From: Thermoplasmatota archaeon | Lineage (GTDB): Archaea; Thermoplasmatota; Poseidoniia; Poseidoniales; Thalassarchaeaceae | Direction of reading: 5' to 3' | Assembly: GCA_036251765.1 (NCBI GenBank) | Contig: JAZANL010000025.1 | Coordinates: forward strand, 667-64,666 | Length of the DNA: 64,000 bases | Shown: positions 2 through 52,624 of the stretch, piece after piece | Position numbering within the stretch: position 1 is the stretch's first letter | How the letters are laid out: each line of letters begins with the position of its first letter | Made by a program: the position numbers and the translations under genes | Notes under the pieces: model-generated | Told to the model about the DNA's origin: nothing | Databases searched by the model: none | What the model saw: the letters and a program-made list of their open reading frames with translations, nothing else

Positions 2-403
2 GATGTAGTAATCATGGAGAGCGGAGTCAATGCAGCTGGAAACCTAATTGAGTGCAACGACAACGGTGCGGTGGTTAGCCCAACGATCCCAGAAGCAGGG
101 GCAGAGATGATTTCTGACGTCCTGGGGGTGAAGGCGATTAGATCGCAGGTCGCTGGTCACGGCACCGTTGGAAGCATGATTGTTGCAAACAACAAGGGGG
201 TCCTGGCACATCCAGACGTAAAGACGTCAGAGGTCGAGGCAATCGAGTCTGCATTGGGTGTTCCGGTAATGGTTGGCACCGTAACCTTCGGCTCACCTTT
301 CGTAGGTGCTGGTTGCTGTACTAGCGACTCCCACGCCCTGGTTGGATCTGGCTCCACAGGTCCTGAATTGAATCGAATTGAAGACGCTCTGGGACTAATT
401 TAA
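2..403 (+). CDS. eif6: Translation initiation factor 6 (aIF6/eIF6), 5'-partial. The frame is open to the window edge.
   Basis: Internally repeated Gly/Val-rich pseudo-repeats (..NDNGAVVSP.., ..NNKGVLAHPD.., ..VGSGSTG..) typical of the eIF6 pentein fold. The ORF runs off the 5' end of the window. Confidence 0.65.
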   Translation, partial: DVVIMESGVNAAGNLIECNDNGAVVSPTIPEAGAEMISDVLGVKAIRSQVAGHGTVGSMIVANNKGVLAHPDVKTSEVEAIESALGVPVMVGTVTFGSPFVGAGCCTSDSHALVGSGSTGPELNRIEDALGLI

Positions 404-1623
404 CCTTGAAAAACCCCGTAATCAACGTTGTTCTTATCTATTTTGGAACTAACCTCAGGCATTGGATACTTCAAACCTGTTGCAGTGTTGAAGAGCACCA
501 CAGACTCGCTCCTTGAGACCAATCCAGATTGCAATGAGTTCCGATATGCCGCCACCGTGGCAGCACCCTCTGGGCACAGAAGCAGACCCTCACTAAGGCC
601 AATCTCATTCTGTATTTCTATGGTCTCCTCATCAGTTACAGAGATTGCAAAACCCCCTGAAGACCTGACTGCATCTAGGATCAGGAAGTCTCCAAGGGCC
701 GAAGGCACTCGGATTCCAGAAGATATGGTTTCAGCATTCTCCCAGTAGTCAGCAAACTCGGCCCCTTCTTCCCAGGCTCGAACAATTGGTGCGCAACCCG
801 TGGATTGAACAGATACCATTCTAGGCAATTTATCTTCTATCCACCCAAGCTCGATTAATTCATGGAACCCCTTCCACATCCCAATAATTCCAGTTCCCCC
901 ACCAGTTGGATAGAAAATGACGTCCGGTAGGCTCCAATCCATCTGCTCGGCGAGCTCCAGACCCATCGTTTTCTTTCCCTCAATCCTATATGGCTCCTTC
1001 AGTGTTGAAACCGCGAACCAGTCAATATCATTAGAACCATCAGCTATTATTTTCCCACATTCCCCAATTAGCCCATTGACGATGTGAGTGCTAGCACCTT
1101 GCATCTGGGTTTCTCTGACATTTATCTCCGGGGTGTTGTCCGGGCACAAGACGGTACACTGAATCCCCGCTCTTGTTGCATAAGCAGCCAATGCAGAACC
1201 GGCATTCCCATTAGTTGGGATGGCTAGATGCTTAACTCCCAATTCCTTTGCCATAGAAACCGCCATCCCCAATCCTCTTGCCTTGAAAGATCCTGTTGGT
1301 AGTCTCGACTCATCCTTAACAAATACAGATTCTACTTCTCCTCCAAATATCGATGCCGAATTATCAAGTGAAATCAAAGGAGTGACCACCTCTCCGAGTG
1401 AAACCCTATTCTGTTCCGACTCTACTGGAAGCAGAGGCGCGTATCTCCAGAATCCCGCGTCCTTCGACTGTTCAATAGAATCCCGCCCGACCTCGGTAGA
1501 GATCCTTTCTAGATCGTACTTCACAACTATCGGCTTTCCTATTTCAGAAACCGTGTGAATCTTGCCGAACTCGTATTTCTTCCCCGAGTATGCGCATTCT
1601 AGATGACTAACGTAACCGCTCAT
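400..1623 (-). CDS. thrC: Threonine synthase (PLP-dependent)
   Basis: 407 aa. PLP-lysine motif context 'SFKARGLG'. Glycine-rich loop 'FYPTGGGTG' of fold-type II PLP enzymes. Overall ThrC-like. Confidence 0.85.
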   Translation of the reverse strand: MSGYVSHLECAYSGKKYEFGKIHTVSEIGKPIVVKYDLERISTEVGRDSIEQSKDAGFWRYAPLLPVESEQNRVSLGEVVTPLISLDNSASIFGGEVESVFVKDESRLPTGSFKARGLGMAVSMAKELGVKHLAIPTNGNAGSALAAYATRAGIQCTVLCPDNTPEINVRETQMQGASTHIVNGLIGECGKIIADGSNDIDWFAVSTLKEPYRIEGKKTMGLELAEQMDWSLPDVIFYPTGGGTGIIGMWKGFHELIELGWIEDKLPRMVSVQSTGCAPIVRAWEEGAEFADYWENAETISSGIRVPSALGDFLILDAVRSSGGFAISVTDEETIEIQNEIGLSEGLLLCPEGAATVAAYRNSLQSGLVSRSESVVLFNTATGLKYPMPEVSSKIDKNNVDYGVFQG

Positions 1624-1661
1624 GAATCCGAAATAGGCAGATGTCCAATGAATTTACCGCT

Positions 1662-1895
1662 CTAAACAGCCGTTGGTGCCACATGGTCATCGCCCTTCGT
1701 TCCAGAACTTCTTACCCTTGACCAGACTTCCACCATTAGTCGATCATGGCACTTTTTGCAGTAGTTGAATCTCTCATACGCTTCCCTGAAAGAGTAGGCC
1801 TTATTCCCACTAGAAACAAGAAATCCCTTAGGCGATAGCCTACTAACTATGTCCGACTTGCTGTCGCAGTTTTCGAAGTCACATTTAGGCATCAT
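1662..1895 (-). CDS. Small Cys-rich (zinc-ribbon-like) protein, last gene of the carboxylase operon
   Basis: 77 aa with CDFENC ... CKKCH cysteine pairs. Start overlaps the stop of the BCCP gene by 4 nt (translational coupling). Confidence 0.35.
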   Translation of the reverse strand: MMPKCDFENCDSKSDIVSRLSPKGFLVSSGNKAYSFREAYERFNYCKKCHDRLMVEVWSRVRSSGTKGDDHVAPTAV

Positions 1896-2320
1896 TCCTC
1901 AACTCCCAAGGAATTACTTATCTCCATTAGGGGCATATTAGCTTCGACCCTCTCTCCTGGCTTGCACATGACCTTCTTCACAGTGCCGTCTATACTCGAC
2001 TTAATCTCATTTTGCATCTTCATCGCTTCAAGGACTATTACTACGCTACCCGCCTCTACTTCATCTCCCTCTGACTTCATAATCGCCACTATCTTACCGG
2101 GAATTGCAGAAGAAATAGCCCCAGTTCCCGATCCCCCAACACTCTTTGTCACACGTCTCTTTCTAGACTTCTTCCTCTCGCCATCGCCAACCTCAACAAT
2201 GTAGGTTCTGCCTTCGATAGAAACTTCCCAGTTCCCCTCTTCCAGACTAACTTCGACTTCGAACTCTTCCCCGTCAACAGTGACTTTCCTTTTTTCAGAC
2301 ACATTATCACCTCTTGGCAC
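1892..2320 (-). CDS. Biotin carboxyl carrier protein / biotinyl-domain subunit
   Basis: C-terminal biotinyl domain with the biotin-attachment motif 'EAMKMQNEI'. Preceded by a Lys/Arg-rich linker. Confidence 0.8.
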   Translation of the reverse strand: MPRGDNVSEKRKVTVDGEEFEVEVSLEEGNWEVSIEGRTYIVEVGDGERKKSRKRRVTKSVGGSGTGAISSAIPGKIVAIMKSEGDEVEAGSVVIVLEAMKMQNEIKSSIDGTVKKVMCKPGERVEANMPLMEISNSLGVEE

Positions 2321-2513
2321 TCCTGATTGCTCTTGCTTTAATCAAGGAAGCCTTCCCCACTGCCATCCTCCTATGAGAAACTGACCAAGAACTACCCCTC
2401 TCTCGACCTAGAGATGGTTTTATTGATTCACCTGACATATTTTCTATCAGTACGGATGAGATTACCGCAGCAATGATTCGCATGTCTCTTTCTTCCTTGC
2501 TCATGTTTCTCAC
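2307..2513 (-). CDS. Small ORF translationally coupled between carboxyltransferase and BCCP (possible small decarboxylase/carboxylase subunit)
   Basis: 68 aa. Overlaps both neighbours by 4-14 nt in operon context. No recognisable motif. Confidence 0.3.
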
Positions 2514-4096
2514 AACGGAATGTTCCCATGTTTCTTCTCGGGGCGGGGTTCTTCTTTCTCCAGAATTGCACCCAAAGCTTTGACCAACACAGACCTAGTC
2601 TCGGATGGCATGACTACATCATCGATGTATCCCAGTGCCGCAGCCTTGTACGGATTTGCAAACGTCTCCTCATAGTCGTCAACAAGCCTCTCCCTCTCTT
2701 GATCGGGGTTTCTTGAATTCGCTATCCTGCGTCTGTGAATAATTTGCACTGCACCCTCTGCACCCATAACAGCTAGTTCTGCAGAAGGCCAAGCAATGTT
2801 GTAATCTCCTCTGATGTGCTTGGAAGACATTACGTCATACGCCCCCCCATATGCCTTCCTCGTGATAACCGTGAGTTTCGGAACCGTCGCCTCAGCAAAT
2901 GCATAGAGAAGCTTGGCCCCGTGCCTAATTATTCCGCCCCATTCTTGACTTGCTCCCGGAAGAAAACCAGGGACATCAACAAATGTTAGTAGTGGTATAT
3001 TGAATGCGTCACAGAATCGAACAAATCTTGCCGCCTTTACAGATGCGTCAATATCGAGACACCCAGCTAAGTGCATCGGTTGATTTGCAACAATTCCGAT
3101 CGATTGCCCACCAAGCCGGCCCAGTCCGATGATGATATTAGGGGCATAACCATCTTGAATCTCTAAGAAACTCCCATTGTCTATGGTTTCCTCGATAACC
3201 TCCAGCATATCATACGGTATTCCAGGGTCCTCCGGGACTATCGAGTCTAGAGATTCACATTTCCTATCAAGAGAATCATTGGTATCTGAAACAGGCGCCT
3301 TTTGTAGGTTGTTCGACGGAATTAGGCCCACTAACTCCCTAACTATCTCCAATGCATCGCCATCGTCTTTTGCCGTAAAGTGAGTAACGCCTGATTTTGT
3401 GGCATGAGTGGAAGCCCCCCCCAGTTCTTCAAACCCGACTTCCTCATTAGTTACAGTCTTGATTACCTCTGGCCCCGTAATGAACATGTGCGATGTATCC
3501 TCGACCATGATCACGAAGTCCGTTATTGCCGGGGAGTATACTGCACCACCTGCGCATGGTCCCATGATAACTGATATTTGGGGTATCACTCCACTAGACC
3601 TAACATTCCTAAAGAAAATCTCTGCATAGGACCCCAGACTTGCAACTCCTTCCTGAATCCTTGCTCCTCCACTATCGTTCAATCCAATTACTGGAGCACC
3701 TGTCTTTACTGCCATGTCTAGAATCTTGCAAATCTTCAAGCCATGCATTTCTCCCAGGGAGCCACCGTAAACAGTAAAGTCCTGCGCAAAACAATAGACG
3801 AGCCTGCCATCAATCGTACCATGACCACAAACCACTCCATCCCCGGGTATCACGTTCCTATCCATATCGAAATCTCTGCACCGGTGCTCTACCAAGGCAT
3901 CAACTTCACAGAATGAATCTGGATCAAGCATCTGCTCTATTCGTTCTCTGGCAGTCATCTTTCCCTTGGCGTGCTGTGCTGAGATGCGTTTCTGCCCACC
4001 TCCAGACTGGGACTTAGACTTACGACGCCTAAGGTCCTCAATCTTGTCGGAGTTGCCACTCATGGAGTTTGGTGGGGGCAGGCCGCCCATGAGCAT
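2510..4096 (-). CDS. Acyl-CoA carboxyltransferase (propionyl-CoA carboxylase beta / methylmalonyl-CoA decarboxylase alpha family)
   Basis: 528 aa. Tandem crotonase-like carboxyltransferase halves. The match to PccB/MmdA family proteins is long-range. The true start may be the internal Met at ~4063. Confidence 0.85.
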
Positions 4097-4165
4097 TCCT
4101 AAAGTGGGGTCGATTCCATCTTCCGGTTGCTTGAAGGCGTATCACCATGTGCAACTAGTTGAAAC

Positions 4166-4603
4166 ATGCGTGTTGTTATTGCTAAACCGGGTCTTGATGG
4201 CCATGATAGAGGTGCCAAGGTAATCGCTAGAGCGCTTAGAGATGGGGGTCACGATGTCATCTACACCGGTCTGAGGAAAACCCCTTCAGACATTGTTAGG
4301 ATCGTGAATGACGAAGATGCAGAAGTACTAGGGCTATCGACTCTTTCCGGGGCCCACGACTCCCTCATCCCAAAGATTTGCGAGGGGCTTAGGCAAGGGG
4401 ATCTCGGCAAAGTAATTGTCTTTGCAGGCGGAATAATCCCTGATCGAGATCTAGAACTTCTCTATGAATCGGGGGTTCGGGCTGTTTTCGGGCCCGGCAC
4501 TCCGACTTCAGACGTCCTGGCATTCTTGGATGAAGCAATCCAAAGGAAAGAAAAAAACGATCCAATAGGAGTTGGAGACGATTTGGGGTGGCACTGGAAT
4601 TGA
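4166..4603 (+). CDS. Methylmalonyl-CoA mutase, B12-binding (C-terminal) subunit
   Basis: 145 aa. 'DGHDRGAKVIARAL' (DxHxxG cobalamin-binding motif) and a Rossmann-like B12 domain. Confidence 0.85.
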   Translation: MRVVIAKPGLDGHDRGAKVIARALRDGGHDVIYTGLRKTPSDIVRIVNDEDAEVLGLSTLSGAHDSLIPKICEGLRQGDLGKVIVFAGGIIPDRDLELLYESGVRAVFGPGTPTSDVLAFLDEAIQRKEKNDPIGVGDDLGWHWN

Positions 4604-5481
4604 GCAATATTTCCGAACTCATTGAACTAGCAAAGTCCGGAGACCGTCGAAGTTTGTCTAGGCTAATGACCAAGGTTGCAGAGTCGGAAAACGAACTAAA
4701 CCTTGAATCAGACACCATCTGGACTTTGGGAGTAACAGGCCCCCCTGGATCGGGAAAATCTACTCTGATTGGCAGATTGGCGAAGCATTGGGCAGAAAGA
4801 GGAGAGAGTGTAGCAATCTTGGCCGTTGACCCCACGTCACCAATCTCGGGAGGTTCATTTCTCGCTGACAGAATTAGGATGGGGGAGGGGGATTTGGGTG
4901 AAAGGGTGTTCGTCAGGTCTATTGCTTCGGGAAATAGCCCGGGAGGTATTTCTCCACGAATTTGGCCTATGTGCCATGCACTATCCCTCTGTGGTTGGAA
5001 ACGAATATTGATAGAAACTGTAGGAACAGGGCAATCTGAGTTCCGAATCGCCGCACTGGCTGATAGGCTTCTCCTCGTCGATGGTCCAGACAGGGGCGAC
5101 ATAATTCAGGCAGAGAAGGCAGGCATTCTGGAGCTAGCCGATGTAATTGCAGTGAACAAATCCGACCTACCCGGAGCGTCTATGACCGCTCAGAGCATTC
5201 GAACTTCTCTGGAACTCTCGGATGGTGACTCTAGGGAGGTCCTCCTAGTCTCCGCTCTAGAAGGAGTTGGAATAGGCGATTTAGTCTCAACAATAGAGGC
5301 CTGTGAACCGCATAGGGGCAAAAATAAGGTCATAATGAGGGAGATGCTAATTTCTGAATGGGATTCAATTTTGGTTTCACACCCAGAAATCGACGATATT
5401 GTCGCACAATTATGTGACAGTTCAATAACTATCGATGAAGCGATAGAATTACTAATTTCAACCATTAACGATAGCAGGTAA
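4588..5481 (+). CDS. meaB: MeaB/ArgK-type GTPase (methylmalonyl-CoA mutase metallochaperone)
   Basis: P-loop 'GVTGPPGSGKSTLIGRL' and NKxD-like 'AVNKSDL'. Overlaps the mutase small subunit by 16 nt. Confidence 0.85.
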   Translation: MALELSNISELIELAKSGDRRSLSRLMTKVAESENELNLESDTIWTLGVTGPPGSGKSTLIGRLAKHWAERGESVAILAVDPTSPISGGSFLADRIRMGEGDLGERVFVRSIASGNSPGGISPRIWPMCHALSLCGWKRILIETVGTGQSEFRIAALADRLLLVDGPDRGDIIQAEKAGILELADVIAVNKSDLPGASMTAQSIRTSLELSDGDSREVLLVSALEGVGIGDLVSTIEACEPHRGKNKVIMREMLISEWDSILVSHPEIDDIVAQLCDSSITIDEAIELLISTINDSR

Positions 5482-5485
5482 TAAT

Positions 5486-6133
5486 ATGAAAGACGGGCAA
5501 AACGACTTCTTTGTTGATCATGTTGGGCACTCAATTGGGGGTATGGGAGGGCATGCTTTCAGACGCCTAACTCATGTTTCAATGGCATCAATCCCATACC
5601 TATACTACGTGCATGGAGAGGCAATATCGTCATACTTCTCCCTGGAACCAAGCGAATTTGTCAGTGTAATTTGCATACTTATTCTTGTGATCGAGGCAAT
5701 ACGACTCAAAACCGGCATTGTCATAGTAGGACAGAGAGAATACGAATCCAACCAGATTTCCGCCTTGGCTTGGGGGGCATTGGCAGTAGCACTTGCCCTT
5801 CTGATAGCACCATTGGGAGAGCCCCTGGGGAGTATGCAAGCAGGGTTGTATGGGGCTCCAATAATTCTGGGCATGACTCTGGTGGACCCGGTTATGGGGG
5901 AGGTAAAGAGGACGAAGAAAGATCTTCGGGCAGCAATTATCGTAGGATTAGCCGTTTCTTACACAGTTTGGATGGGCTGTTATTACTGGATTGGAACCGA
6001 TTTTATCGCAGCGCTGTTGCTCGCCCCACTGACGGTTCTGGGAGAGCTCCCCCCTACTCGGGAGATCGATGATAATGCCACCATGATTCTTTTCCCCCTT
6101 GTCGGTCTCGTCCTAATACTGCCTTTCTTGTGA
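5486..6133 (+). CDS. Polytopic membrane protein, function unknown (possible dolichol kinase/CTP-transferase-like)
   Basis: 215 aa with several hydrophobic helices. 5-nt gap after meaB. No diagnostic motif. Confidence 0.4.
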   Translation: MKDGQNDFFVDHVGHSIGGMGGHAFRRLTHVSMASIPYLYYVHGEAISSYFSLEPSEFVSVICILILVIEAIRLKTGIVIVGQREYESNQISALAWGALAVALALLIAPLGEPLGSMQAGLYGAPIILGMTLVDPVMGEVKRTKKDLRAAIIVGLAVSYTVWMGCYYWIGTDFIAALLLAPLTVLGELPPTREIDDNATMILFPLVGLVLILPFL

Positions 6134-6296: not shown

Positions 6297-6557
6297 TCAA
6301 GTATTTCTAGAATTGCGGATCTTCTCTTCAACGGCTAGGAGGATAGTCTTGCCAGAAATTCCCCCAGGCCCACTGTAACCCCCAACGCTTCCATCTGAGC
6401 GAATGACCCTGTGGCAAGGGATTGAAATTGGAACAGGGTTGGAGCCACAAGCATTCGCAACTGCTCTGTAAGAGCCAGGCCTTCCAATTGCAATTGCTAT
6501 GTTCTTGTAAGTGCTGGTCTCTCCGGGTGGGATTTTGGTAATCTCTTCCCACACCAT
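6297..6557 (-). CDS. ogt: Methylated-DNA-protein-cysteine methyltransferase (Ogt), short single-domain form
   Basis: Active-site 'IPCHRVIRSDGSVGGYSGPGG' (PCHR motif). Start placed at the internal Met so as not to overlap the upstream ORF. The long ORF extends to 6689. Confidence 0.7.
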   Translation of the reverse strand: MVWEEITKIPPGETSTYKNIAIAIGRPGSYRAVANACGSNPVPISIPCHRVIRSDGSVGGYSGPGGISGKTILLAVEEKIRNSRNT

Positions 6558-6589
6558 TCTCTGAAAGGCGGTCCCTTGGATTTCTAGCG

Positions 6590-6880
6590 CTATTTCTTCT
6601 CCCACAATTCTTCGCCTTCCAACTCTTCCATTCCGACAATCTCGTAGTTTGATGGGAATAGGGCTATTGCGATTCCGATAACAATGCACCCAATACCGAA
6701 CCAGAAAGAACCCCTGATCATCAACTCCATCCCAATGGCGAATAGGATTAGACCTCCCAGGTTAGAGACCCAAACAAGAGTCTTGAATGTGGAAAGAGAA
6801 ACCCCACTTGCCCTCTTGGTCCTATGGGGGCCGAACTCTGCACCGAATCTAACCGGATCGTCATCAGCCAACTTGTTCAC
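6590..6880 (-). CDS. Small membrane protein (2 TM), tail of the bc-type operon
   Basis: 96 aa. Hydrophobic segments 'LILFAIGMELMI' and 'FGIGCIVIGIAIALF'. Start overlaps the ferredoxin stop. Confidence 0.3.
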   Translation of the reverse strand: MNKLADDDPVRFGAEFGPHRTKRASGVSLSTFKTLVWVSNLGGLILFAIGMELMIRGSFWFGIGCIVIGIAIALFPSNYEIVGMEELEGEELWEKK

Positions 6881-7209
6881 CTATCTATCATTATGATGGC
6901 ATCCGTTGGGCACGCTAGGACGCAAATCTTGCAACCAGTGCAAGGATCTCTCAGAATCCTGGCCTTCCTGTTCACATCAATATCCATTATGGGGCTTGCT
7001 AGCGGGGTGTCATAGAGCTCTATGGCGTCGTCTTCGCATACGATGGTGCACTGATCGCACCCTATGCATAATTCCTCCTTGACCCAAGCGACCGCGTCCT
7101 CACCACCTTTGAGTAAGGCCTCCTCCTCTGCTCTAACCGAGTTTAATTGAACTCTGATTCTGGATTGCTCTATCAGCCTTCTCTTCAGTACGTCACTAAC
7201 CTTGGTCAT
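6877..7209 (-). CDS. 2x[4Fe-4S] ferredoxin-domain protein
   Basis: 'CIGCDQCTIVC' and 'CTGCKICVLACP' clusters. Start trimmed to the internal Met to remove a 112-nt overlap with the upstream gene. Confidence 0.6.
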   Translation of the reverse strand: MTKVSDVLKRRLIEQSRIRVQLNSVRAEEEALLKGGEDAVAWVKEELCIGCDQCTIVCEDDAIELYDTPLASPIMDIDVNRKARILRDPCTGCKICVLACPTDAIIMIDR

Positions 7210-7220: not shown

Positions 7221-10034
7221 CTATGTTCGTGACTCTTCTATCTGTCTCGCAAGGAAGCTGACAACGTCCAGAATCTCGAAGTCGTGACGAGGGTCTCCCT
7301 CGAACTTCAAGCATTCGAAGTGAGCTACACACTTGGGGCAGGAGGTAAGCATGATGTCTGCACCGGTGGCCCTCACTTCGTCGAACCTCTGGACTCTGAG
7401 TGCCCTGCTGTTCTCATTGCATGACATCATGCTTGATACTCCGCAGCAGAGGGCATCTTCTCCAGTGTGCTCCATCTCAACTAGATTGACTCCATCTACA
7501 GAGCCAACGAGGTCACGTGGCTCATCGTAGATGTTCATCTGCCTGCCTAGGCGACATGGGTCGTGATACGTCACGGTCACCTCGTCGTCCGTCTTCAGTT
7601 CCATGTCAAATCCATTCTCGATTAGGAACTCTGTAGTGTGCATGACCTTCATGTCGTCTAACTCGTAGTCTAGTGCGAATGTCCTGAAGCACTCCGCGCA
7701 AGATGTTACTAGGGTCTCGATTCCGCTCTCGCCCAACTTCTTCTGGTTGTACGACTTGAGCTTCTCGAAGACTTCGGTCATTCCCTGCCACTTCTGATCG
7801 TGTCCACAGCACTTCAGGAAGTCCCTACCAAGGTACGTTACTTCCTCGCCCATTTCCTCGAAGATAGTGAATGCGGAAGTAGTGGCATCCCCAAGATCCA
7901 TGCTTCCCTTATTCACATGGCTGAACACCATTTCTTGGTCAATGTAGTCGACGCAGCCAGGGTAGTATCCAATGCTGGAGTCAAGCGGATAGTCCTCAAC
8001 GGGAATGAATGCATCATCAGCATCTTCCTCTGCCTCTGCGGCTAGAACGGCCTGAAGGACAGTGTGTGGAATCTCGGTAGCAGGCGGACCTCCGACAACG
8101 AGGTTTCTCCTGATGTCGATATATGAGTCATAATCAACAAGCTGTGGGCATGCGTTAGTGCACGCTGTACAGGTCAAGCAGGAGTAAAGTGGGACTCCGT
8201 CGTCTTCGTTGTTCCATGTGTTGTATATGATGTTCAGCTTGTCACCAGCGTTGAACAGCCTTACCGGGCACGCATCATCACAAAGGTCGCAGCCATAGCA
8301 CTTGTTCATCTCCCACTCGTAGCCCCTAGCCATGCTCCTTAGCATAACGAAGACAAGTGCTCCCACGCCCAGGCATGGGATGAACATGGAGTAGATTAGC
8401 TTAGCATCCAGGCTCTTCGGATTCTTCTCGTAAGTCGGATTGGTGATTGACATCTCGGACAACTCCTCGTCACTGAGGCCAACTTCGGAACGGATTACAG
8501 CCGTACCATCCTCGGCGAGTAGAAGTGGTTGATACGCGACTGCAGAGAAGTCGGAAATCATCGTGACGCTTTCGTTGACCCCTTCTGAAGTGGTAGTGAA
8601 GGTTATGGTGTATGAAAATCCAGAGTCTAGGTATATTGTCCCGGAGTCGCAGGATGCCCCCTCATTCATCCATAGCGTCTCGCCAGCTTCATCGGTAAGC
8701 ACGAGACTCTGCGTGTGCAAACCAGCCCCGCGAACTGTGGTTCTGAAGTTACAACCTACGTCGGTCGGCACGCTCGCGACTCCCAAGTTTTCTACTTCGA
8801 ACTGAATTGACTCTGTGATTTCGATAACGGATCCGTCTTGCGCTCCTTCGTATATTATCTCGTTAGCACCTATGTTCCTGGAAGTTTGAGAATCGGCATG
8901 GCCGTTGGCTCCGCTGAAGTCGATAATCTTGCTTCTTGTAGGCTGGAATATCCCCCAGTTAACCCAATGCTTAGCCGGAATTACGCACCATTCGCTATGT
9001 TCAGTTCCCTCTTCCATCGAGTCCCAAGCAGAAAGTGAACTCGTTTGCTCGTAAGGCAGGCAATCATCCTCCCATTCCTCCCAAACGGGAACCTCACCTG
9101 CATGGATTAGCGTATCTCCTGGCTGGCCTCTTATGCCGTCTAACTCCTCTATCTTGGCATCGTATTGGTACTCCCAGAACCCCATAGTGCCCAATCCTCG
9201 CTGATTCCAGAATCCGTTCTCGTACACAGGCCATGTTACTGTGCACAAAAGTACTGTAGCAACCAAAGACCCAACTGCCACCTGTCTTCCCAATACTGGA
9301 GTTAGTCTGGATCCCAGGGGGCCAATCAGGAATTTCCTCACCGAGAAGTAAAGAACAGTGAAAATGAAAACCCCCGTGAGTATCCATGGAATTGCATTGA
9401 ACACTTCCGCGGTCCATGGCGATTGTGTGCCGCAATTGAAACCGCCATGGGCGCTAGACCAACAATAGTCGGTCCTATTTTGAGCATACATTTCCAGGAA
9501 GATGTTTATTGAGAACACGGAGATGAACCAGACGTGAGCGAGATATACTGCCCCAGCCGTCGCAAACCAGGGGTCCTCAACCCCCCTCTTCTCCCTTTTT
9601 CCAATGATGAATGGGGGTAGTGCTAGTATTCCCACTGGTAGTCCGGTGATCATTGCACCCCAGACTCCAGCATTCCAGGAAACAATCGGTTGCCCGAAGA
9701 ACTCACCTATGGGGCCAGCGGGTATGTCGAATTGAGGTAGGTATTCGCCCCACCTCAGATAACCGTAGGAGAACAAAACATACCAATCTGGAAAGACGAA
9801 TCCGGCCTGGGCATATGGGTCTGCTGCATTGTGCAGTGGGGGCGGTATGATCCACGAGTAGAATGCGATCACCATGACAATGGCTGCGAAGATGATTGTG
9901 TCTCTGAGGACTTCAGTGGGCCAGAAAGCATGCCCTGTGAACACCCTCTTCCGTTCTTCTTCTGCTCCCAGCAACTGCTCCTTCTCATCGATGTAGGTAT
10001 CAGCAATCCTCCCAAATCTCTCTATCATGCCCAT
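7221..10034 (-). CDS. Fusion protein of three parts: cytochrome b subunit-IV-like N-domain (Qo 'PDWY' motif), large extracytoplasmic domain, and C-terminal HdrD/GlpC-like 2x[4Fe-4S] + CCG-domain module
   Basis: 937 aa. N-terminus has 'PDWYVLFSYGYLRW' (PEWY-type Qo motif) and ~6 TM helices. Central ~300-aa Thr/Ser/Gly-rich soluble domain, then one TM. C-terminal 'CYGCDLCDDACPV' and 'CLTCTACTNACP' iron-sulfur motifs. Two CCG-type cysteine motifs ('KCCGHD', 'LCCGVS'). Confidence 0.75.
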   Translation of the reverse strand: MGMIERFGRIADTYIDEKEQLLGAEEERKRVFTGHAFWPTEVLRDTIIFAAIVMVIAFYSWIIPPPLHNAADPYAQAGFVFPDWYVLFSYGYLRWGEYLPQFDIPAGPIGEFFGQPIVSWNAGVWGAMITGLPVGILALPPFIIGKREKRGVEDPWFATAGAVYLAHVWFISVFSINIFLEMYAQNRTDYCWSSAHGGFNCGTQSPWTAEVFNAIPWILTGVFIFTVLYFSVRKFLIGPLGSRLTPVLGRQVAVGSLVATVLLCTVTWPVYENGFWNQRGLGTMGFWEYQYDAKIEELDGIRGQPGDTLIHAGEVPVWEEWEDDCLPYEQTSSLSAWDSMEEGTEHSEWCVIPAKHWVNWGIFQPTRSKIIDFSGANGHADSQTSRNIGANEIIYEGAQDGSVIEITESIQFEVENLGVASVPTDVGCNFRTTVRGAGLHTQSLVLTDEAGETLWMNEGASCDSGTIYLDSGFSYTITFTTTSEGVNESVTMISDFSAVAYQPLLLAEDGTAVIRSEVGLSDEELSEMSITNPTYEKNPKSLDAKLIYSMFIPCLGVGALVFVMLRSMARGYEWEMNKCYGCDLCDDACPVRLFNAGDKLNIIYNTWNNEDDGVPLYSCLTCTACTNACPQLVDYDSYIDIRRNLVVGGPPATEIPHTVLQAVLAAEAEEDADDAFIPVEDYPLDSSIGYYPGCVDYIDQEMVFSHVNKGSMDLGDATTSAFTIFEEMGEEVTYLGRDFLKCCGHDQKWQGMTEVFEKLKSYNQKKLGESGIETLVTSCAECFRTFALDYELDDMKVMHTTEFLIENGFDMELKTDDEVTVTYHDPCRLGRQMNIYDEPRDLVGSVDGVNLVEMEHTGEDALCCGVSSMMSCNENSRALRVQRFDEVRATGADIMLTSCPKCVAHFECLKFEGDPRHDFEILDVVSFLARQIEESRT

Positions 10035-10043: not shown

Positions 10044-10916
10044 TCAGTGCGGCTCCGCAATTCCCTGAACCCAGACGATGAAAAGATGCGCCAATATGAG
10101 AACAGTAACAATTAGCGGTAATACGAAGACATGGAGGAAATACATCCGGACCACTGTCTGCCCTGTTAGGGTCGTCCCCCCGAACATCGCATTAGCGACC
10201 CACTCCCCAACAAGTGGTGTGGCCATTGCCATGTTTATGCCAATCGTAGCCGCACCGAAGGCTAGACTGTCCCATGGAAGTAGATAGCCTGAGTAACCGA
10301 AGAAAATGGAGAAGAACATCAGAGCGACCCCGATTAACCAGTTTAGCTCCCTGGGGTTCCTGTATGCCCCAGTGAAGTAAACTCGGCACATATGGAGGAA
10401 GACCGCAGCCACGAAGAAGTGTGTACCCCAGTGATGGATTGATCTGATGATGTATCCGAAAGGCAACTCCAACATGATGAACTCCATTGACGCATAGGCA
10501 GGGGTCGGATCAGAATTCAGATCCCCTCCCGGTACGTAGTAGAAGCCTAGAATTGTGCCTGTGATCACTAGGATGATGAAAGCGATGAAAGATATCCCGC
10601 CCAAGCAGTATAGGGGATACCAGTACCAGATTATCCTGAGTTTGTATTTCTCGGCATGAGTGAGCGGCATCTGCCTGTGCATGCTGTAGTAAGAGTCCCT
10701 GCTCATTCCCCAGTAATCCTGGATTCTGAATCTTGTGTCCAACCAGGAGAAGGCCCAGAGGAACAACTTCTCTGCGAGACCCATGCTTCCAGCATTCGTC
10801 TCCACTGCCCTAAGTATGTCCTTTCGAGGCATGTCGTCTCGCTCCCTCCTTAGGGTGAATGCGAAAATAACGACAACAACCGCGATGAAAATCCACAAGA
10901 ACCAGAATTGTATCAT
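10044..10916 (-). CDS. Cytochrome b (b6-like N-terminal haem-binding part of a split cytochrome b)
   Basis: 290 aa, polytopic. Conserved His pairs in TM helices ('HHWGTHFFVAAVFLHMCRVYFTGAYR'). Sits immediately upstream of the subunit-IV-like fusion gene. Confidence 0.8.
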   Translation of the reverse strand: MIQFWFLWIFIAVVVVIFAFTLRRERDDMPRKDILRAVETNAGSMGLAEKLFLWAFSWLDTRFRIQDYWGMSRDSYYSMHRQMPLTHAEKYKLRIIWYWYPLYCLGGISFIAFIILVITGTILGFYYVPGGDLNSDPTPAYASMEFIMLELPFGYIIRSIHHWGTHFFVAAVFLHMCRVYFTGAYRNPRELNWLIGVALMFFSIFFGYSGYLLPWDSLAFGAATIGINMAMATPLVGEWVANAMFGGTTLTGQTVVRMYFLHVFVLPLIVTVLILAHLFIVWVQGIAEPH

Positions 10917-10924: not shown

Positions 10925-11797
10925 CTAACCGCAGAATGTGTACCAGTCCATGAAGTCTGGAAGGGCCTCTATGGTGCCCCCATTAACAGTGAACGGTATT
11001 AGGGGCATCCCATAAGGTGCAGGGCCACCGGTCTTCTTCACTCCGATGAAATCGAACTCTTGCCCATTTGATCTATTTCTGGCTGTGTTCTTTTCTATCA
11101 CCGTGTGGTCGTACCTACTAGAGTGGCAAATGCAGAACGACTTGTTTCCACTTGAATCGGTTCCGCCGGGCAACCAGCTATCGGCCGTGAAGTCATTGTT
11201 GACTAATTGCCAGCCTGGTATGCAACACAGGTGGGGGCATCTAGCAAAAACGATAATCATGTTATTGTGGATATTAAGTGACGCATATTCCTCCTTTTCC
11301 TCAATCTCGAAACCGGATCCGACATAAGCCCCTCCGGCAGTGTAACCATCCATTAGCTGGAACCGGGGAGTGTCTGCTTCCAATGGTTTGTTCTTGTTCT
11401 CCTCGTGAGGGACATAGGTTGCGATAATCGGCAATCCAGACCATAGGCCGGCAGCCCCTACCATTCCTGTTGTTGAATTTGCGGATTCGTCGATGAACGC
11501 TTGCATGGTCATGGGTTGCTTGTCCATGTTACCATACCAAACATCGGATCCTTTTGGGACATAGAATTTGATCGATGAGTCAGAGCCACCGCCTTCAGCC
11601 TGCCCCATTAGGAATGAGGCAAAACCCACGCCACCCAGTGCGGCTGTTGTAATTAGTCCAGCAGCGGTATTGAATGACAGCCTCATGAACTCCCTCCTGT
11701 CGATGACCCCACTCTTCTCGTGGTGACTCACATTTTGTGTTTCGATCGGACGTAATTTGAACTTCCTCGCCATGGTCAGACCTCGTATTTCTTCCAA
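10925..11797 (-). CDS. Rieske [2Fe-2S] iron-sulfur protein with Tat signal
   Basis: Twin-arginine-type N-terminus 'RREFMRLSF...'. Rieske boxes 'CPHLCC' and 'CICHSSRYD'. Confidence 0.8.
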   Translation of the reverse strand: MEEIRGLTMARKFKLRPIETQNVSHHEKSGVIDRREFMRLSFNTAAGLITTAALGGVGFASFLMGQAEGGGSDSSIKFYVPKGSDVWYGNMDKQPMTMQAFIDESANSTTGMVGAAGLWSGLPIIATYVPHEENKNKPLEADTPRFQLMDGYTAGGAYVGSGFEIEEKEEYASLNIHNNMIIVFARCPHLCCIPGWQLVNNDFTADSWLPGGTDSSGNKSFCICHSSRYDHTVIEKNTARNRSNGQEFDFIGVKKTGGPAPYGMPLIPFTVNGGTIEALPDFMDWYTFCG

Positions 11798-12225
11798 GAA
11801 TTAGTGTCATGGCTAGTGATGTACTTGTTCCTTCTGTGTTTAACAATCACCACATCCGGAAGTACGTACTTCAAGTACACTATCCCCATGATAATCAGGG
11901 TAAGTAGAGTCATTGCCAGATTGAATGAAAGTAACTGCTGGTCCCAATTGTTGTACAAACCGTAAGCCAGTGCGCCAGCCCAATAGAGTGTCCACATTAG
12001 TCCCCATAGGCCGACTAGGATGATTAGCCAAGAGTCACCAGAAGGTGCCAGACTGGCTCTTACTATGGTGCCCGGCTTGACCTCGTTGAAGACACCGTGA
12101 TCAACCGCCGCTGCGAAGGACTCCTCCGTCAGCGTGGCCTCTTCAAGAGCCACTCTGGCGTCCTCGACGCTAACTTCTCCCGACTTAACTTGTCGAAGTA
12201 GCCTCATCACCACATCGTCTTTCAT
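11776..12225 (-). CDS. Small membrane protein (2 TM) of the Rieske/cyt b operon
   Basis: 149 aa. Hydrophilic N-domain followed by two TM helices. Overlaps neighbours by 4-22 nt. Confidence 0.4.
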   Translation of the reverse strand: MKDDVVMRLLRQVKSGEVSVEDARVALEEATLTEESFAAAVDHGVFNEVKPGTIVRASLAPSGDSWLIILVGLWGLMWTLYWAGALAYGLYNNWDQQLLSFNLAMTLLTLIIMGIVYLKYVLPDVVIVKHRRNKYITSHDTNSWKKYEV

Positions 12226-13025
12226 AGTTGATCGCCTCTCCTTAGATGCTTTATTCTTAGCCTCAGTAGATTACTTCTCCCTTCGTAATGCCTGGAGAAA
12301 CCGTATCTCAGGAAAAGCCCACAGAATAGGATTACCAGCATCACGGCCCCAAATCCAAGAAGCCCAAGCCAGTGGGCCAAGAGTTTGGCACCCATGTGAT
12401 GGAGATCAGTGTGACTCTCAACCGGTGCCGGAGGGGTGATGTCCCCATTTCCAGAGAAAACCGTCCTAGTTCTTCCGTTGTCCTCACCTTCGTCGAAGCT
12501 AGTAGTTAGGCGATTCCATCTATCTAGGCTTGATGGCGCCATGTCCCCATTTACCGAATTTCCAGCGACCATGAAGTCTACAGTCCCAGAACCCTCCGCG
12601 GGGCTCACCCACCGGAACAACCATGATCTGTCAGAGGTCCTTGAACCGGCATCTGTGTGAGTAAGTGTGGTCGGGTCATCTTCCCAGTTCTGGACAAGAC
12701 CTTCTGATCCTTCCGAAGGCTCTAGTGAACCAACACTAACTTTCATCGAGAAACCTCCCGTGTAGGACTCAAGATCGGCCTCAGGTCCGCCGATGAGTTG
12801 TAACTTCATCTCATATGCTGTTTCTGGGGCATAATGGAAAGGAACCCCGTCAAGAATCACGGTAACCGAATTGTCCGGCTCCTCAGCATGGCATGTGCAT
12901 CCTGCAAGGGCGACATCGCCCTGTCCATTTGCATTACCCCCCACTCCTGTGTGCAAAGCCTGGCCAGAACCCGCAACAAAAACAGTCACCAAAATAAGTA
13001 CGATTGTTTTCTGTCGCGATGCCAT
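12222..13025 (-). CDS. Secreted, C-terminally membrane-anchored protein; first gene of the Rieske/cyt b operon (possible redox partner)
   Basis: 267 aa. N-terminal signal/TM 'TIVLILVTVFVAGSG'. C-terminal TM 'LLGFGAVMLVILFCGLFL'. Cys pair 'GCTCH' near the N-terminus. Confidence 0.4.
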   Translation of the reverse strand: MASRQKTIVLILVTVFVAGSGQALHTGVGGNANGQGDVALAGCTCHAEEPDNSVTVILDGVPFHYAPETAYEMKLQLIGGPEADLESYTGGFSMKVSVGSLEPSEGSEGLVQNWEDDPTTLTHTDAGSRTSDRSWLFRWVSPAEGSGTVDFMVAGNSVNGDMAPSSLDRWNRLTTSFDEGEDNGRTRTVFSGNGDITPPAPVESHTDLHHMGAKLLAHWLGLLGFGAVMLVILFCGLFLRYGFSRHYEGRSNLLRLRIKHLRRGDQL

Positions 13026-42846: not shown

Positions 42847-43884
42847 ATGCAGGGAACCCTGGTCGAGTGCGTCCCAAATTTTAGCGAAGGAAGGGACAAG
42901 AACGTAATTGATCAAATCACTAGCCCGATTATTGAGGCATCGGGGGTCTCTCTGCTCGATGTCGACATGGGTCACGATTTCAACAGGACAGTCGTGACGA
43001 TGGTGGGTGAGCCGGAGAGGGTATTGGACACGGTAATCCAGTGTACAAGGGTAGCAACACGACTGATCGATATGAGAGAGCACTCGGGTGAGCATGCAAG
43101 GATGGGCGCAGTAGACGTGGTCCCTTTCATACCAATACGAGGAATTTCCATGGAAGATTGCGTAAAACTTTCTGAAAGATACGCTCAAGCAGTCTCGGAA
43201 GAGCTTGATTTACCAGTCTACCTATATGCCAAAGCAGCAAGAACACCACAACGGCATAGGCTTCCCGATATTCGTAGGGGCCAGTACGAGGGAATGGCCG
43301 AGAAGGTAACTTCTCCAGAATGGGAACCGGACTTTGGACCAGCCGTATTCAAGCCGAAGATGGGGGTAACTGCAACTGGGGCAAGACCCATACTAATTGC
43401 CTATAACGTAAACCTGGATACTGATGATAAAACATTGGCAAACTCGATTGCTTCCAAGATAAGGACAAGTGGATCACTCGTTAAGGACGAGAACGGCGAG
43501 AAGGTCATCGGAGACGACGGCAAGCCGCTCAGAAATCCAGGAATGTTCGAGTCATTACAGGCTGCTGGATGGATGTATGACCCTTCTACTGCACAGGTAT
43601 CGATGAACCTTCTTGATTACGAAGTTACAGGCCTTCATGATGTTACAGAAGCAATACGACTCGAGGCGGAAAAGATTGGACTAAACGTTACTGCTGGGGA
43701 GTTGGTCGGGCTAGTTCCATTGAGCGCCATGAAATCTGCTGGGAATTATTACAATGATGGCAGCGTCAATAATGATGAAAAATCAATCGTCGAAAGGGCG
43801 ATTTCAGGACTCATGCTGGACAGGCTTAGAGATTTTGACCCGCAATCATGCATTATTGAATGGGCAATTGAAAGGGGGACCTGA
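42847..43884 (+). CDS. Glutamate formiminotransferase (FtcD N-terminal-type)
   Basis: 'LVECVPNFSEGRD' formiminotransferase N-terminal signature. ~345 aa. Confidence 0.8.
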   Translation: MQGTLVECVPNFSEGRDKNVIDQITSPIIEASGVSLLDVDMGHDFNRTVVTMVGEPERVLDTVIQCTRVATRLIDMREHSGEHARMGAVDVVPFIPIRGISMEDCVKLSERYAQAVSEELDLPVYLYAKAARTPQRHRLPDIRRGQYEGMAEKVTSPEWEPDFGPAVFKPKMGVTATGARPILIAYNVNLDTDDKTLANSIASKIRTSGSLVKDENGEKVIGDDGKPLRNPGMFESLQAAGWMYDPSTAQVSMNLLDYEVTGLHDVTEAIRLEAEKIGLNVTAGELVGLVPLSAMKSAGNYYNDGSVNNDEKSIVERAISGLMLDRLRDFDPQSCIIEWAIERGT

Positions 43885-43887
43885 AAA

Positions 43888-44508
43888 TTGAATGAAGGGT
43901 ACAAAGAGGTTCTTCGCTCGATCGCCTCGTCTGAACCTACACCGGGGGGTGGTTCAGTTGCCGCCCTTGCTCTGGCGCACGCGCACTCTCTTGCAATGAT
44001 GGTGGCAAGGCTAACTGAGGGCAAGAAGAAGTGGGCAGATGGCCATGAAACAGCTCAATCTGTCATTTCTGAATCACAAGCTGGTCTAGCAGAATCGCTT
44101 CGCCTAGCTGAGATTGATGCGGGGGCATTTGAGTCAGTAATGTCTGCCTATCGCCTTCCCAGGGAGACCGAGGAAGAAAAGGAAATCAGAAAGAAATCGA
44201 TTCGTGATGCGACCATAGGAGCTGCCGAGGCCCCACTTGCTACGGCTTCCTCTGCAAGGAGGCTTTTGTCTAGCCTGGAAAGGCTATGTGAATCATGCAA
44301 TGAAAATGCTCTAACCGATCTAGCATCATCATCAGAACTTTGCCTTTCTGCAGTAAAAATCGCTGCAATGAACGTACGGATAAATCTCGATTTTATCGAT
44401 GGAGATGACGTTGACAGACTTTCATCTCAAATAGATAAAGTCGTTCAACAATCAACTACTTCTGCGGAGGCAATTGCCTTGAAGGTTAACGAAAGGTTGG
44501 GTTGGTGA
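43888..44508 (+). CDS. Formiminotetrahydrofolate cyclodeaminase (FtcD C-terminal-type, stand-alone)
   Basis: 'SEPTPGGGSVAALALAHAHSLAMMV' cyclodeaminase motif. 3-nt gap after the transferase gene. Confidence 0.7.
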   Translation: MNEGYKEVLRSIASSEPTPGGGSVAALALAHAHSLAMMVARLTEGKKKWADGHETAQSVISESQAGLAESLRLAEIDAGAFESVMSAYRLPRETEEEKEIRKKSIRDATIGAAEAPLATASSARRLLSSLERLCESCNENALTDLASSSELCLSAVKIAAMNVRINLDFIDGDDVDRLSSQIDKVVQQSTTSAEAIALKVNERLGW

Positions 44509-46520: not shown

Positions 46521-46540
46521 CCGAATAGCCTCGCAGTCAT

Positions 46541-48067: not shown

Positions 48068-48083
48068 TATCATTCAAGAAAAA

Positions 48084-48794
48084 TTGCACATGCAACGACA
48101 TCCTGGGACCGATCCCCCATCATTTACGAGCAGAGTTTTGGCGACTGAAGGCGACTCTATCATTTTGGAAGAAACACATTGCTATCCAAGGGGAGGCGGG
48201 CAACCAGGAGATACAGGTTTGTTTAGATTGGAAGATGGCGCCACCGTCAAACTAGATGAGGTTCTACCTGGCGAAATGATTCTGCATCCTGTGGAAGAGA
48301 TTCAAAAGTTCTCAAAGGGCCAGAAAGTAAAATGCGAAATTGACGTGATTAGAAGGAACGGTCACACTATGATGCACACTGCTCAACATATCTTCTCTGC
48401 GTTAGCCGAAGACTTGTGGGGGTGTGAGACCGTTGGAAACCAGATTGGTGCTGATCAATCTAGAGTAGACCTACTTTTTGACGACAAGGAGTTATTCAAC
48501 CCGGAACAGCTAATTGAAAATGTGAATTCAGTACTCTCCTCAAATATTCCAGTGAACATTCACGAATGGGAGCGTGATAAGATTCTGGGGCATGAGAAAA
48601 TGAGACATACGAAGTTTATGCACAGAATCCCTTCATCAATAACTCATCTGCGTGTCGTCGAAGTAGAAGGGATAGATCTTTGCCCCTGTGCAGGTACTCA
48701 TGTTTCAAATACGTCGCAAATCCCACGCGTCAGGTTTCTGGGAAAGAAGAACAAGGGCAAGGGGAGACTCCGTGTTTCCTATGATTTTGAATAA
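48084..48794 (+). CDS. alaX: Alanyl-tRNA editing protein AlaX-like (AlaRS editing domain homologue)
   Basis: 'HTAQHIFSA' and 'CPCAGTHV' zinc-binding motifs of the AlaX/AlaRS editing domain. Confidence 0.7.
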   Translation: MHMQRHPGTDPPSFTSRVLATEGDSIILEETHCYPRGGGQPGDTGLFRLEDGATVKLDEVLPGEMILHPVEEIQKFSKGQKVKCEIDVIRRNGHTMMHTAQHIFSALAEDLWGCETVGNQIGADQSRVDLLFDDKELFNPEQLIENVNSVLSSNIPVNIHEWERDKILGHEKMRHTKFMHRIPSSITHLRVVEVEGIDLCPCAGTHVSNTSQIPRVRFLGKKNKGKGRLRVSYDFE

Positions 48795-48818
48795 TACAAT
48801 AGATAGAATAGATTCTAT

Positions 48819-48894
48819 TGGTGGGCTCGGCAGGAATTGAACCTGCGATCTTCGCCATGTCAAGGCGACGTCATAACCCCTAGACCACGAGCCC
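48819..48894 (-). tRNA. tRNA-Val (anticodon GAC), CCA encoded
   Basis: Reverse complement folds: acceptor GGGCUCG/CGAGCCC, anticodon stem UCGCC/GGCGA, loop UUGACAU, T-loop GGUUCAAUUCC, 3' ACCA. Confidence 0.85.
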
Positions 48895-49221: not shown

Positions 49222-49241
49222 CTGATAACGTAGGTTATCAG
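49222..49241. promoter_or_regulatory. Perfect palindrome CTGATAAC-N4-GTTATCAG in an AT-rich noncoding region
   Basis: 8-bp inverted-repeat arms with a 4-nt spacer. Nearby direct repeats of AATATTCTG (x2). Confidence 0.25.
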
Positions 49242-51715: not shown

Positions 51716-51730
51716 AAATAACGAACTCTT

Positions 51731-52621: not shown

Positions 52622-52624
52622 GAA

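Follow-up and report, generated by a model that had tools for sequence, protein, structure and literature searches.

The 64,000-nucleotide (nt) stretch of DNA analysed here (hereafter the window) comes from contig JAZANL010000025.1 of a Thermoplasmatota archaeon placed in the Poseidoniales family Thalassarchaeaceae (assembly GCA_036251765.1), and our analysis concerns a gene of 937 codons on its minus strand together with the operon that contains it. The gene appears to encode a fusion in which subunit IV of a Rieske/cytochrome b complex is joined, across a long insertion, to a cytoplasmic iron-sulfur (Fe-S) module. The main finding is the arrangement as a whole: a seven-gene operon in which subunit IV is fused to an HdrD/EtfD-like module and a ferredoxin-type gene stands directly behind it. 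The operon is tightly packed and conserved, runs from 13025 to 6590 on the minus strand (Table 1), and is predicted to encode a Rieske/cytochrome b complex of the b6 type. A preliminary description, made from the letters of this stretch, had read the gene as a single multidomain protein, and in this it was correct: the open reading frame (ORF) is unbroken, and the order of domains is borne out, with an N-terminal membrane part, a hydrophilic middle of ~275 residues, one transmembrane (TM) helix, and then two [4Fe-4S] and two CCG motifs.

Table 1 Genes of the operon, listed in order of transcription, and parts of the fusion protein; positions are those of the window.
Feature	Position	Strand	Basis
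Secreted choice-of-anchor V domain protein with C-terminal anchor, first gene of the operon	12222-13025	minus	NCBIfam NF041895, 81.9 bits (cut-off 42)
DUF7318-like membrane protein, upstream of Rieske gene	11776-12225	minus	Pfam PF24002, 26.9 bits (just below cut-off of 27)
Rieske iron-sulfur protein, CPHLCC ... CICHSS, RREF Tat-like signal	10925-11797	minus	Sequence
Cytochrome b6-type subunit, four haem His and CxGG	10044-10916	minus	Pfam PF00033, E = 2e-41
Whole fusion gene, 937 residues: subunit IV, insertion, HdrD/EtfD-like Fe-S module	7221-10034	minus	ORF and homologues
Subunit IV-like part, residues 1-184: helices E, F and G, ef loop	9483-10034	minus	Family profile against PDB, TM prediction
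PDWY, residues 82-85, PEWY-type Qo-site motif	9780-9791	minus	Translation
Insertion part 1, residues 185-270: outward loop C191/H196/C201, then TM hairpin 214-232, 252-270	9225-9482	minus	Absent in short forms
Insertion part 2, residues 271-545: acidic ectodomain, helical subdomain and 8-strand β-sandwich	8400-9224	minus	AlphaFold2
TM 546-568, counterpart of ancestral helix H in short forms, returning the chain to the cytoplasm	8331-8399	minus	Alignment
Linker GYEWEMNKC and two CxxCxxCxxxCP motifs (C579/582/585/589; C619/622/625/629), two predicted cubane [4Fe-4S]	8085-8330	minus	Pfam Fer4_8/9/10
Two complete CCG motifs (C694, CC742-743, C779xxC782; C827, CC863-864, C899xxC902)	7221-8084	minus	Pfam CCG
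Ferredoxin-type partner, 110 residues, 2x[4Fe-4S], RnfB/NuoI/PorD-like	6877-7209	minus	Pfam Fer4_21 and others
Small predicted 2-TM protein, GTG start overlapping ferredoxin TGA stop (GTGA)	6590-6880	minus	Sequence

The N-terminal part is, as far as its sequence allows, subunit IV of a b6-type Rieske/cytochrome b complex. A family profile of this part, constructed from our protein and the long and short relatives described below, matched the C-terminal halves of cytochrome b in the PDB (E = 3e-13) and subunit IV of b6f (E = 4e-10). The first three residues of the PDWY motif (P82, D83 and W84) do not vary among the 61 aligned sequences, which comprise long and short forms, and at least 90% of these sequences also have Y85. 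Pfam returned no match within the first 570 residues of the 937-residue protein itself; short relatives exceed the cut-off of the corresponding family, PF00032, with 39.2 and 27.2 bits against 20.7.

Kyte-Doolittle hydropathy identified five TM helices ahead of the middle domain (46-64, 122-144, 158-180, 214-232 and 252-270) and one behind it (546-568), and the secondary structure of the AlphaFold2 model agrees with this count. The preliminary description had placed six helices before the middle, a number that would leave the Fe-S domain outside the cell and that we rejected, as hydropathy and AlphaFold2 both give five; the surplus helix is probably the amphipathic helix of the ef loop that follows PDWY. 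Given five helices plus one, and an N terminus on the inner side like that of subunit IV, the middle domain lies outside and the Fe-S/CCG domain in the cytoplasm, which fits the earlier proposal that the membrane separates these two domains. In keeping with the positive-inside rule, the short loops that face inward are basic; likewise, predicted disulfide cysteine pairs are confined to outward-facing segments and cluster cysteines to inward-facing ones. The helix at 546-568 aligns with the fourth TM helix of the short fusions, and its first residue, L546, is invariant across all forms.

The cytoplasmic module starts immediately behind this helix, with the first cluster cysteine only 11 residues past its end and a linker (GYE.EMN.C) that is conserved in long and short forms alike. 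Pfam reported two [4Fe-4S] sites at residues 575-631, with Fer4_8/9/10 above cut-off, and two CCG stretches that reach as far as residue 906, with a score of 79.4 bits (cut-off 20.6). Among the 61 sequences, all eight cysteines of the two CxxCxxCxxxCP motifs and nine of the ten CCG cysteines are invariant, and the tenth, C743, is retained in at least 90%. The module is thus classed, by its motifs, as an HdrD-type/CCG Fe-S protein (Fer4 plus two PF02754 domains), with the cubane sites adjacent to the membrane and the CCG sites farther from it. Its only strong sequence match in the PDB was 9ojn, the EtfD of M. smegmatis (E = 9e-21), and a Foldseek search with the full model likewise placed 9ojn at the top (E = 2e-13), with LutA and HdrB next (TM-score on target 0.65-0.77).

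A fusion of this kind might be suspected of being an artefact, in which an assembly frameshift or chimera joins two or three separate genes. We searched 5.8 billion proteins and found, among the matches listed, at least 120 full-length homologues with 73-94% identity, drawn from JGI, ENA, NCBI, Tara and Logan assemblies and named Thalassarchaeaceae, Thermoplasmatota or Euryarchaeota; a second protein search added Poseidoniaceae-type forms with 57-69% identity. Altogether the long forms number 194, with lengths of 908-1344 residues, and every one of the 194 carries both PxWY and CCG. We also scanned one genome per GTDB species, which yielded 478 relatives, and looked at the best 80 loci in detail. 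All 80 belong to Poseidoniales, and they include metagenome-assembled genomes (MAGs), single-cell genomes such as AG-422-I20, and one 1.6-Mb long-read contig; the fusion gene is intact in 68 of them, and the remaining loci are interrupted by contig ends. The ratio of nonsynonymous to synonymous substitution rates (dN/dS) against these orthologues was lowest in the Fe-S/CCG part, at 0.008, followed by residues 1-245 (0.019) and the ectodomain (0.057). As independent assemblies hold the same unbroken architecture, single-cell and long-read data included, and dN/dS lies at 0.008-0.06 in every domain, we conclude that the fusion gene is neither a frameshift nor a chimera; the check for a joining frameshift that had been called for revealed none. 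The junction of subunit IV with the HdrD-like module is moreover seen independently in the short forms, and the probability of an artefact is in our view vanishingly small. In public annotations the homologues go under no more specific a name than "(Fe-S)-binding protein" or "heterodisulfide reductase-related". A contig labelled as an Acidimicrobiaceae bacterium MAG (L072, NZNH01000104.1) has a gene with 78% identity to the Poseidoniales one; this contig is probably archaeal and mis-binned.

The middle of the protein belongs to an insertion of ~360 residues (185-545) that, according to the alignments, sits in the outward-facing loop between helices G and H and is found only in Poseidoniales. 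In a joint alignment the short forms bridge the same two helices with only 9-14 residues, and since the same fusion exists in other Thermoplasmata without the insertion, we regard it as lineage-specific. It comprises a disulfide loop, a TM hairpin and a β-sandwich ectodomain. Both cysteines of the loop, C191 and C201, are present in 41 of 41 long forms, and the histidine between them, H196, does not vary among the 20 Thalassarchaeaceae homologues that are closest to our protein. Because the insertion begins and ends outside, the topology of the remainder is unchanged, and the apparent paradox of cofactor and central domains on opposite faces is resolved. The preliminary description had called the middle rich in Thr and Ser; these residues are indeed enriched (17.8% Ser+Thr, compared with 12.6% in the whole protein), but the acidity of residues 271-545 is more striking, with 47 D+E against 13 K+R (17% vs 4.7%).

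It had also been suggested that the central domain may have a novel fold and mediate the binding of a substrate or partner, a reading that, taken further, would make this domain the part that matters most for function. Several observations are in keeping with this idea: the domain has no recognisable family, with no Pfam match even at E ≤ 1; it is under purifying selection, as its dN/dS indicates, and retains conserved motifs (GFW, QPxD, QPLL and NPxYxxNPKxLDAKL); and its position is on the outer side of the membrane, the side on which Rieske head and acceptor operate. An AlphaFold2 model based on an alignment of 28 ectodomains was confident, however (predicted local distance difference test, pLDDT, 86.6; predicted TM-score, pTM, 0.82), and consists of a small helical subdomain followed by an eight-stranded β-sandwich, which is an ordinary fold. 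Foldseek against the PDB recovered no match across the whole ectodomain, and its partial matches were generic sandwiches, namely p24 GOLD (E = 3e-5, TMq 0.25), MAM, the Tk-SP jelly-roll, phage tail-fibre tips and carbohydrate-binding modules; we therefore rejected a novel fold as the description of this domain. Nor is it a likely site of redox chemistry. Inspection of the ectodomain sequences for cofactor motifs found no CxxCH and no copper-site pattern, the only conserved histidine is H379, and cysteines occur only in pairs (C428/C462 in 40 of 41 long forms; C325/C350 together in 24 of 41), and a redox cofactor was rejected on these grounds. The ectodomain is also the most variable and fastest-evolving part of the protein, with a median identity of 58% and a usual length of 238-295 residues, and an otherwise identical fusion exists in other Thermoplasmata without it. 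A role for this domain as the central functional element is accordingly very unlikely, and its supposed novelty is the weakest part of the finding. With low confidence, we suggest that it is a structural or docking element on the outer face that holds no redox cofactor. Two forms carry ~400 extra ectodomain residues, for a total of up to ~700 (P0331, 1334 residues; P0376, 1344 residues), and the only Pfam signal in the added part is a weak TcfC E-set match.

The gene for the cytochrome b lies 9 nt upstream of the fusion gene and the Rieske gene 8 nt further upstream, and these genes stand in the same order in the related loci. The best PDB matches of the cytochrome b, a four-helix protein, were the b6 subunits of b6f (E = 1e-41). 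Cys104 of its YCLGG motif aligns to b6 Cys35 (FYCLGG), the covalent ligand of haem cn, and the CxGG motif was present in 84 of the 87 loci examined; the protein is hence described here as b6-type with a putative haem cn site. The cytochrome b of the window has an extra N-terminal TM helix. The Rieske protein matched NCBIfam Rieske_proteo below cut-off (E = 4.5e-8), and PF00355 proteins hold the Rieske position in four of the six related loci outside Poseidoniales (L081, L082, L085 and L086). The PF24002 family is found at the position of the DUF7318-like protein in L081, L084, L085 and L086. For the Rieske and small TM proteins, Pfam gave nothing useful at E ≤ 10.

The choice-of-anchor V protein that begins the operon had no useful match in Pfam at E ≤ 10 or in the PDB by sequence. 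As a multihaem cytochrome c occupies the same position in L082, this protein may be a candidate for the outward-facing electron acceptor in place of cytochrome c1/f. It has a His-rich segment just ahead of its C-terminal TM anchor, and a GCTCH motif.

Downstream, the ferredoxin-type gene follows the fusion gene in 65 of the 68 Poseidoniales loci whose fusion gene is complete, which upholds the tight linkage suggested earlier. The overlap of this gene with the stop codon of the fusion gene, on which that suggestion was based, proved to be a product of choosing the longest ORF (151 residues, GTG at 7332). The conserved start is the ATG at 7209, which lies 11 nt past the TAG stop of the fusion gene, is preceded by GGAG, and opens a conserved N terminus (MT[KE]..D.L.RR..EQ.RIR); in other loci stop codons break the upstream extension, and the spacing between the two genes ranges from about -1 to about 400 nt. 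Many Thalassarchaeaceae loci (L004-L009, L012, L015-L017 and others) have ~290-420 nt between fusion stop and ferredoxin start, compared with 11 nt in the window. The best NCBIfam match of the 110-residue protein was the rnfB subfamily, below cut-off (E = 5e-11). The small 2-TM protein that closes the operon is similar to a 72-residue ORF at the same position in a Thermoplasmata locus (E = 2e-6). At its longest extent an O6-methylguanine-DNA methyltransferase ORF at 6297-6689 on the minus strand (Pfam DNA_binding_1, E = 1e-30) overlaps the 3′ end of the 2-TM gene by ~100 nt; the true start of this ORF is probably further downstream.

Elsewhere in the window, genes at 400-6133 and 42847-54196 fit a heterotroph that degrades amino acids and propionate. 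They include the propionyl-CoA carboxylase beta subunit (2510-4096), methylmalonyl-CoA mutase (B12-binding subunit at 4166-4603, MeaB at 4588-5481 and large subunit at 52625-54196), and a set for histidine utilisation at 42847-48067 (formiminotransferase, cyclodeaminase, urocanase and histidine ammonia-lyase).

The fusion also extends beyond Poseidoniales. An exhaustive HMMER search of 1.84 billion cluster representatives returned one other long cluster, with 63% identity, and seven clusters of 543-789 residues in which the subunit IV part (PPPLH...ADP...LPDWY) is joined straight to the Fe-S/CCG module. About 40 short forms, which bear precomputed PF00032+Fer4+CCG annotation, were retrieved with a profile of these clusters; their taxonomy, taken from protein names and contig look-ups, is Thermoplasmata archaeon or Ca. 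Geothermarchaeales. The fusion of subunit IV to an HdrD-type module is therefore a family and not a one-off. In all six related loci outside Poseidoniales, larger Fe-S partners replace the small ferredoxin. One variant has a ~510-residue ferredoxin+MvhD (FlpD) protein behind the short fusion; a second, in L082 (8629-13487), has HdrC-like, HdrB-like, HdrA-like (about 1010 residues) and MvhD genes; and a third, in the Geothermarchaeales locus L084 (3707-9710), has FrhB-like, HdrA-like, MvhD and HdrBC-like genes and a GcvH-like lipoyl carrier. The neighbours in L082 and L084 suggest that a Rieske/cytochrome b complex in the membrane is coupled there to a module for flavin-based bifurcation. In L081 (4343-6973), L085 (3366-5984) and L086 (3336-5969), the cytochrome b itself is 872-877 residues long and bears Big_5 Ig-like ectodomains. 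This looks like an independent gain of an outward β-sandwich appendage by the cytochrome b of short-form hosts, and such appendages seem to be a recurrent accessory of these archaeal complexes.

One explanation for these results, and the one we favour with a probability of roughly one in two, is that the Fe-S module provides an electrical connection between a ferredoxin-type partner in the cytoplasm and haem bn/cn at the Qi site. The four clusters would act as an electron wire leading from this partner to the haems of the adjacent cytochrome b6, the partner being the presumably co-transcribed 110-residue 2x[4Fe-4S] protein here and a ferredoxin-MvhD, HdrA or FrhB module in the relatives. Low-potential electrons from the cytoplasm would then reduce quinone at Qi, and the same complex would re-oxidise quinol at Qo through the Rieske protein. 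The net effect would be a built-in ferredoxin:quinone reductase, comparable to mycobacterial EtfD, or to HdrDE run in the quinone-reducing direction. We favour the entry of electrons because the hosts are aerobic heterotrophs, because the neighbours in the relatives are cytoplasmic proteins that handle electrons, and because EtfD offers a precedent. The statement in full, that this is a Rieske/cytochrome b complex with a built-in ferredoxin:quinone reductase in which an HdrD-like wire feeds haem cn/bn at Qi, we put forward more tentatively, at odds well short of even.

This interpretation must be made cautiously, as several points weigh against it. The complete cysteine sets of the CCG motifs (CC and not C-T, CAEC and not CPHC) fit thiol/disulfide chemistry at least equally well. 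PF00032 was not reported for the 937-residue protein at E ≤ 0.01, and its full-length AlphaFold2 model reached only a moderate pLDDT (75.7) and is of low confidence near the cluster sites. The direction of flow, furthermore, comes only from physiology, that is, from aerobic heterotrophs making reduced ferredoxin, and from the analogy with EtfD; and the 110-residue ferredoxin may be a bound subunit and not a diffusible donor.

The first of these points leads to an alternative scenario in which the CCG domain is catalytic, as in HdrDE and DsrMK, and the complex is a quinone-linked thiol/disulfide oxidoreductase whose Rieske/cytochrome b core replaces the NarI-type cytochrome b. It would reduce or form a disulfide in the cytoplasm, on a thiol cofactor or a carrier protein. 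In an alignment to 9ojn, which covers the soluble part only, EtfD Thr539 corresponds to C743 and EtfD His583 to E781. As these two residues are what gives EtfD its linear [3Fe-4S] cluster and makes the other cluster non-catalytic, our protein is by motif closer to the catalytic HdrB/HdrD than to EtfD: both CCG motifs are complete, the cysteine lost in EtfD is kept, and the His that renders EtfD non-catalytic is absent (PMC13083937). The closest stand-alone relatives, with ~40% identity, are annotated as HdrD and come from anaerobic methanotrophic (ANME-2)/Methanosarcinales and Asgard MAGs; the best NCBIfam match was the thiol:fumarate reductase TfrB (E = 4.5e-31); and the lipoyl carrier in the L084 cluster would also suit this chemistry. 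Against this, the Poseidoniales operon has no candidate gene for a disulfide substrate or carrier, L082 has separate HdrB- and HdrC-like genes besides its fusion, and the CCG proteins LutA, GlpC and EtfD serve as relays. The equivalog cut-offs were also widely missed, with 108 bits against 385 for TfrB and 33.6 against 400 for DsrK. The module stayed below the cut-offs of all curated NCBIfam equivalogs for Hdr, Dsr, Tmc, Hmc, Glp and Glc, and we rejected assignment to the curated families TfrB, GlpC, DsrK, TmcB, HmcF, GlcF and LdhH, all of which scored far under theirs. On balance we consider a disulfide oxidoreductase unlikely.

One may also postulate that the wire is an output and not an input. 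Oxidation of quinol at Qo would send one electron to the high-potential Rieske branch and the other, through haem bp/bn and the clusters, to a low-potential cytoplasmic acceptor such as ferredoxin, as has been proposed for those anammox Rieske/cytochrome b complexes that have cytoplasmic oxidoreductase subunits. The anatomy would be the same as for electron entry, and the HdrA/MvhD modules that adjoin the short fusions are known from flavin-based bifurcation. Against this, archaeal 2-oxoacid:ferredoxin oxidoreductases produce reduced ferredoxin, so that a sink would be needed and not a source, and no sequence feature fixes the direction. Poseidoniales are described as aerobic heterotrophs on proteins and fatty acids (PMC6336850). 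We judge export of electrons to be improbable, to about the same degree as disulfide chemistry.

The Poseidoniales are the Marine Group II of the ocean, archaea that have no cultured member and are abundant worldwide. The published account of their "complex III" names only cytochrome b plus Rieske, without canonical bc1 subunits, and it also notes an orphan RnfB in their genomes, with no other Rnf component (PMC6336850). The 110-residue ferredoxin-type gene may be this orphan "RnfB", and if so, the operon supplies a concrete route for electrons from ferredoxin or the cytoplasm into the respiratory chain. An Fe-S wire beside a haem cn-type Qi site bears on the purpose of haem cn, and the fusion bears on whether bc complexes descend from cytochrome b-anchored dehydrogenases. 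If our reading is true, the complex would realise, in hard-wired form, the ferredoxin-to-b6f route of cyclic electron flow that has long been debated, and would do so in an archaeal group that ranks among the most abundant in the surface ocean. We found no description of the fusion of subunit IV to HdrD, or of the Poseidoniales insertion, in the full-text literature, many subscription papers being outside the scope of that search; as no account of subunit IV as the partner of such an Fe-S module turned up there, the fusion, and not the middle domain, is the more interesting feature.

The system can be compared with several that are already known. With b6f and the b6c-type complexes of Firmicutes it shares the split cytochrome b, the four haem His, the CxGG cysteine, the PxWY of subunit IV and the upstream Tat-type Rieske protein. 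It differs from them in that subunit IV continues into a fourth helix and a cytoplasmic Fe-S/CCG domain of ~370 residues, to which the Poseidoniales protein adds the TM hairpin and ectodomain, and in that the operon has no gene for cytochrome f/c1 and starts instead with the choice-of-anchor V protein. The presence of CxGG also sets this clade apart from the archaeal short-cytochrome-b subfamily N, which lacks it (PMC5600118).

Mycobacterial EtfD (Rv0338c / M. smegmatis) is the closest solved structure by both sequence and fold, over residues ~616-933. It too has two cubane and two CCG sites tethered to a haem-containing membrane domain, and it serves as a point of entry to the quinone pool, the role proposed here. 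In the 9ojn structure these clusters wire the cytoplasm to a b haem and menaquinone, with the nearest cluster ~7 Å from the haem, a closeness to the membrane that has its parallel in the 11 residues ahead of the first cluster cysteine in our protein, and the wire from a cytoplasmic carrier is experimentally supported, in an aerobe (PMC13083937). The anchor of EtfD, however, is its own 5-TM single-haem domain, whereas the anchor here is an unrelated subunit IV that has no haem ligands of its own; the haems would therefore be those of the separate b6 subunit. EtfD also has C-T and CPHC, corresponding to its linear [3Fe-4S] cluster and a His-capped cluster (PMC13083937), in the places where our protein has CC and CAEC; further, our protein lacks the ~30-kDa disordered tail, and its putative partner is of the ferredoxin type, where the donor to EtfD is ETF.

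HdrDE, DsrMK(JOP) and the Hme/Tmc-type complexes likewise place cytoplasmic Fer4 and two CCG domains, with complete CCG motifs, on a membrane b-type cytochrome that exchanges electrons with quinone or methanophenazine. A cofactor domain placed as in known complexes of this kind had been named as a ground against the preliminary reading. The domain is indeed cytoplasmic, as in HdrDE, DsrMK and EtfD, but its membrane partner is different. In HdrDE and DsrMK the partner is a NarI/HdrE-type cytochrome b without Rieske protein or Qo site, and EtfD likewise combines its module with a cytochrome of the NarI type; here it is subunit IV/b6 of a Rieske complex, and the hosts are aerobic heterotrophs with no known heterodisulfide. 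Methanoperedens has both kinds of complex, Rieske/cytochrome b and HdrDE, as separate entities (PMC4683180).

A further parallel is subfamily G, from the anammox bacterium Kuenenia and others, in which a bc-type core is accompanied by a cytoplasmic Fe-S oxidoreductase encoded in the same operon. Its complexes have been discussed as models for an ancestor made up of a "cytochrome b-anchored dehydrogenase plus Rieske" (PMC5600118). If true, our reading would make the archaeal complex a living example of that proposed ancestor of bc complexes. The module of subfamily G is a separate NAD(P)-binding Fe-S protein from another family, whereas in the archaeal system described here an HdrD-like domain is fused to subunit IV itself.

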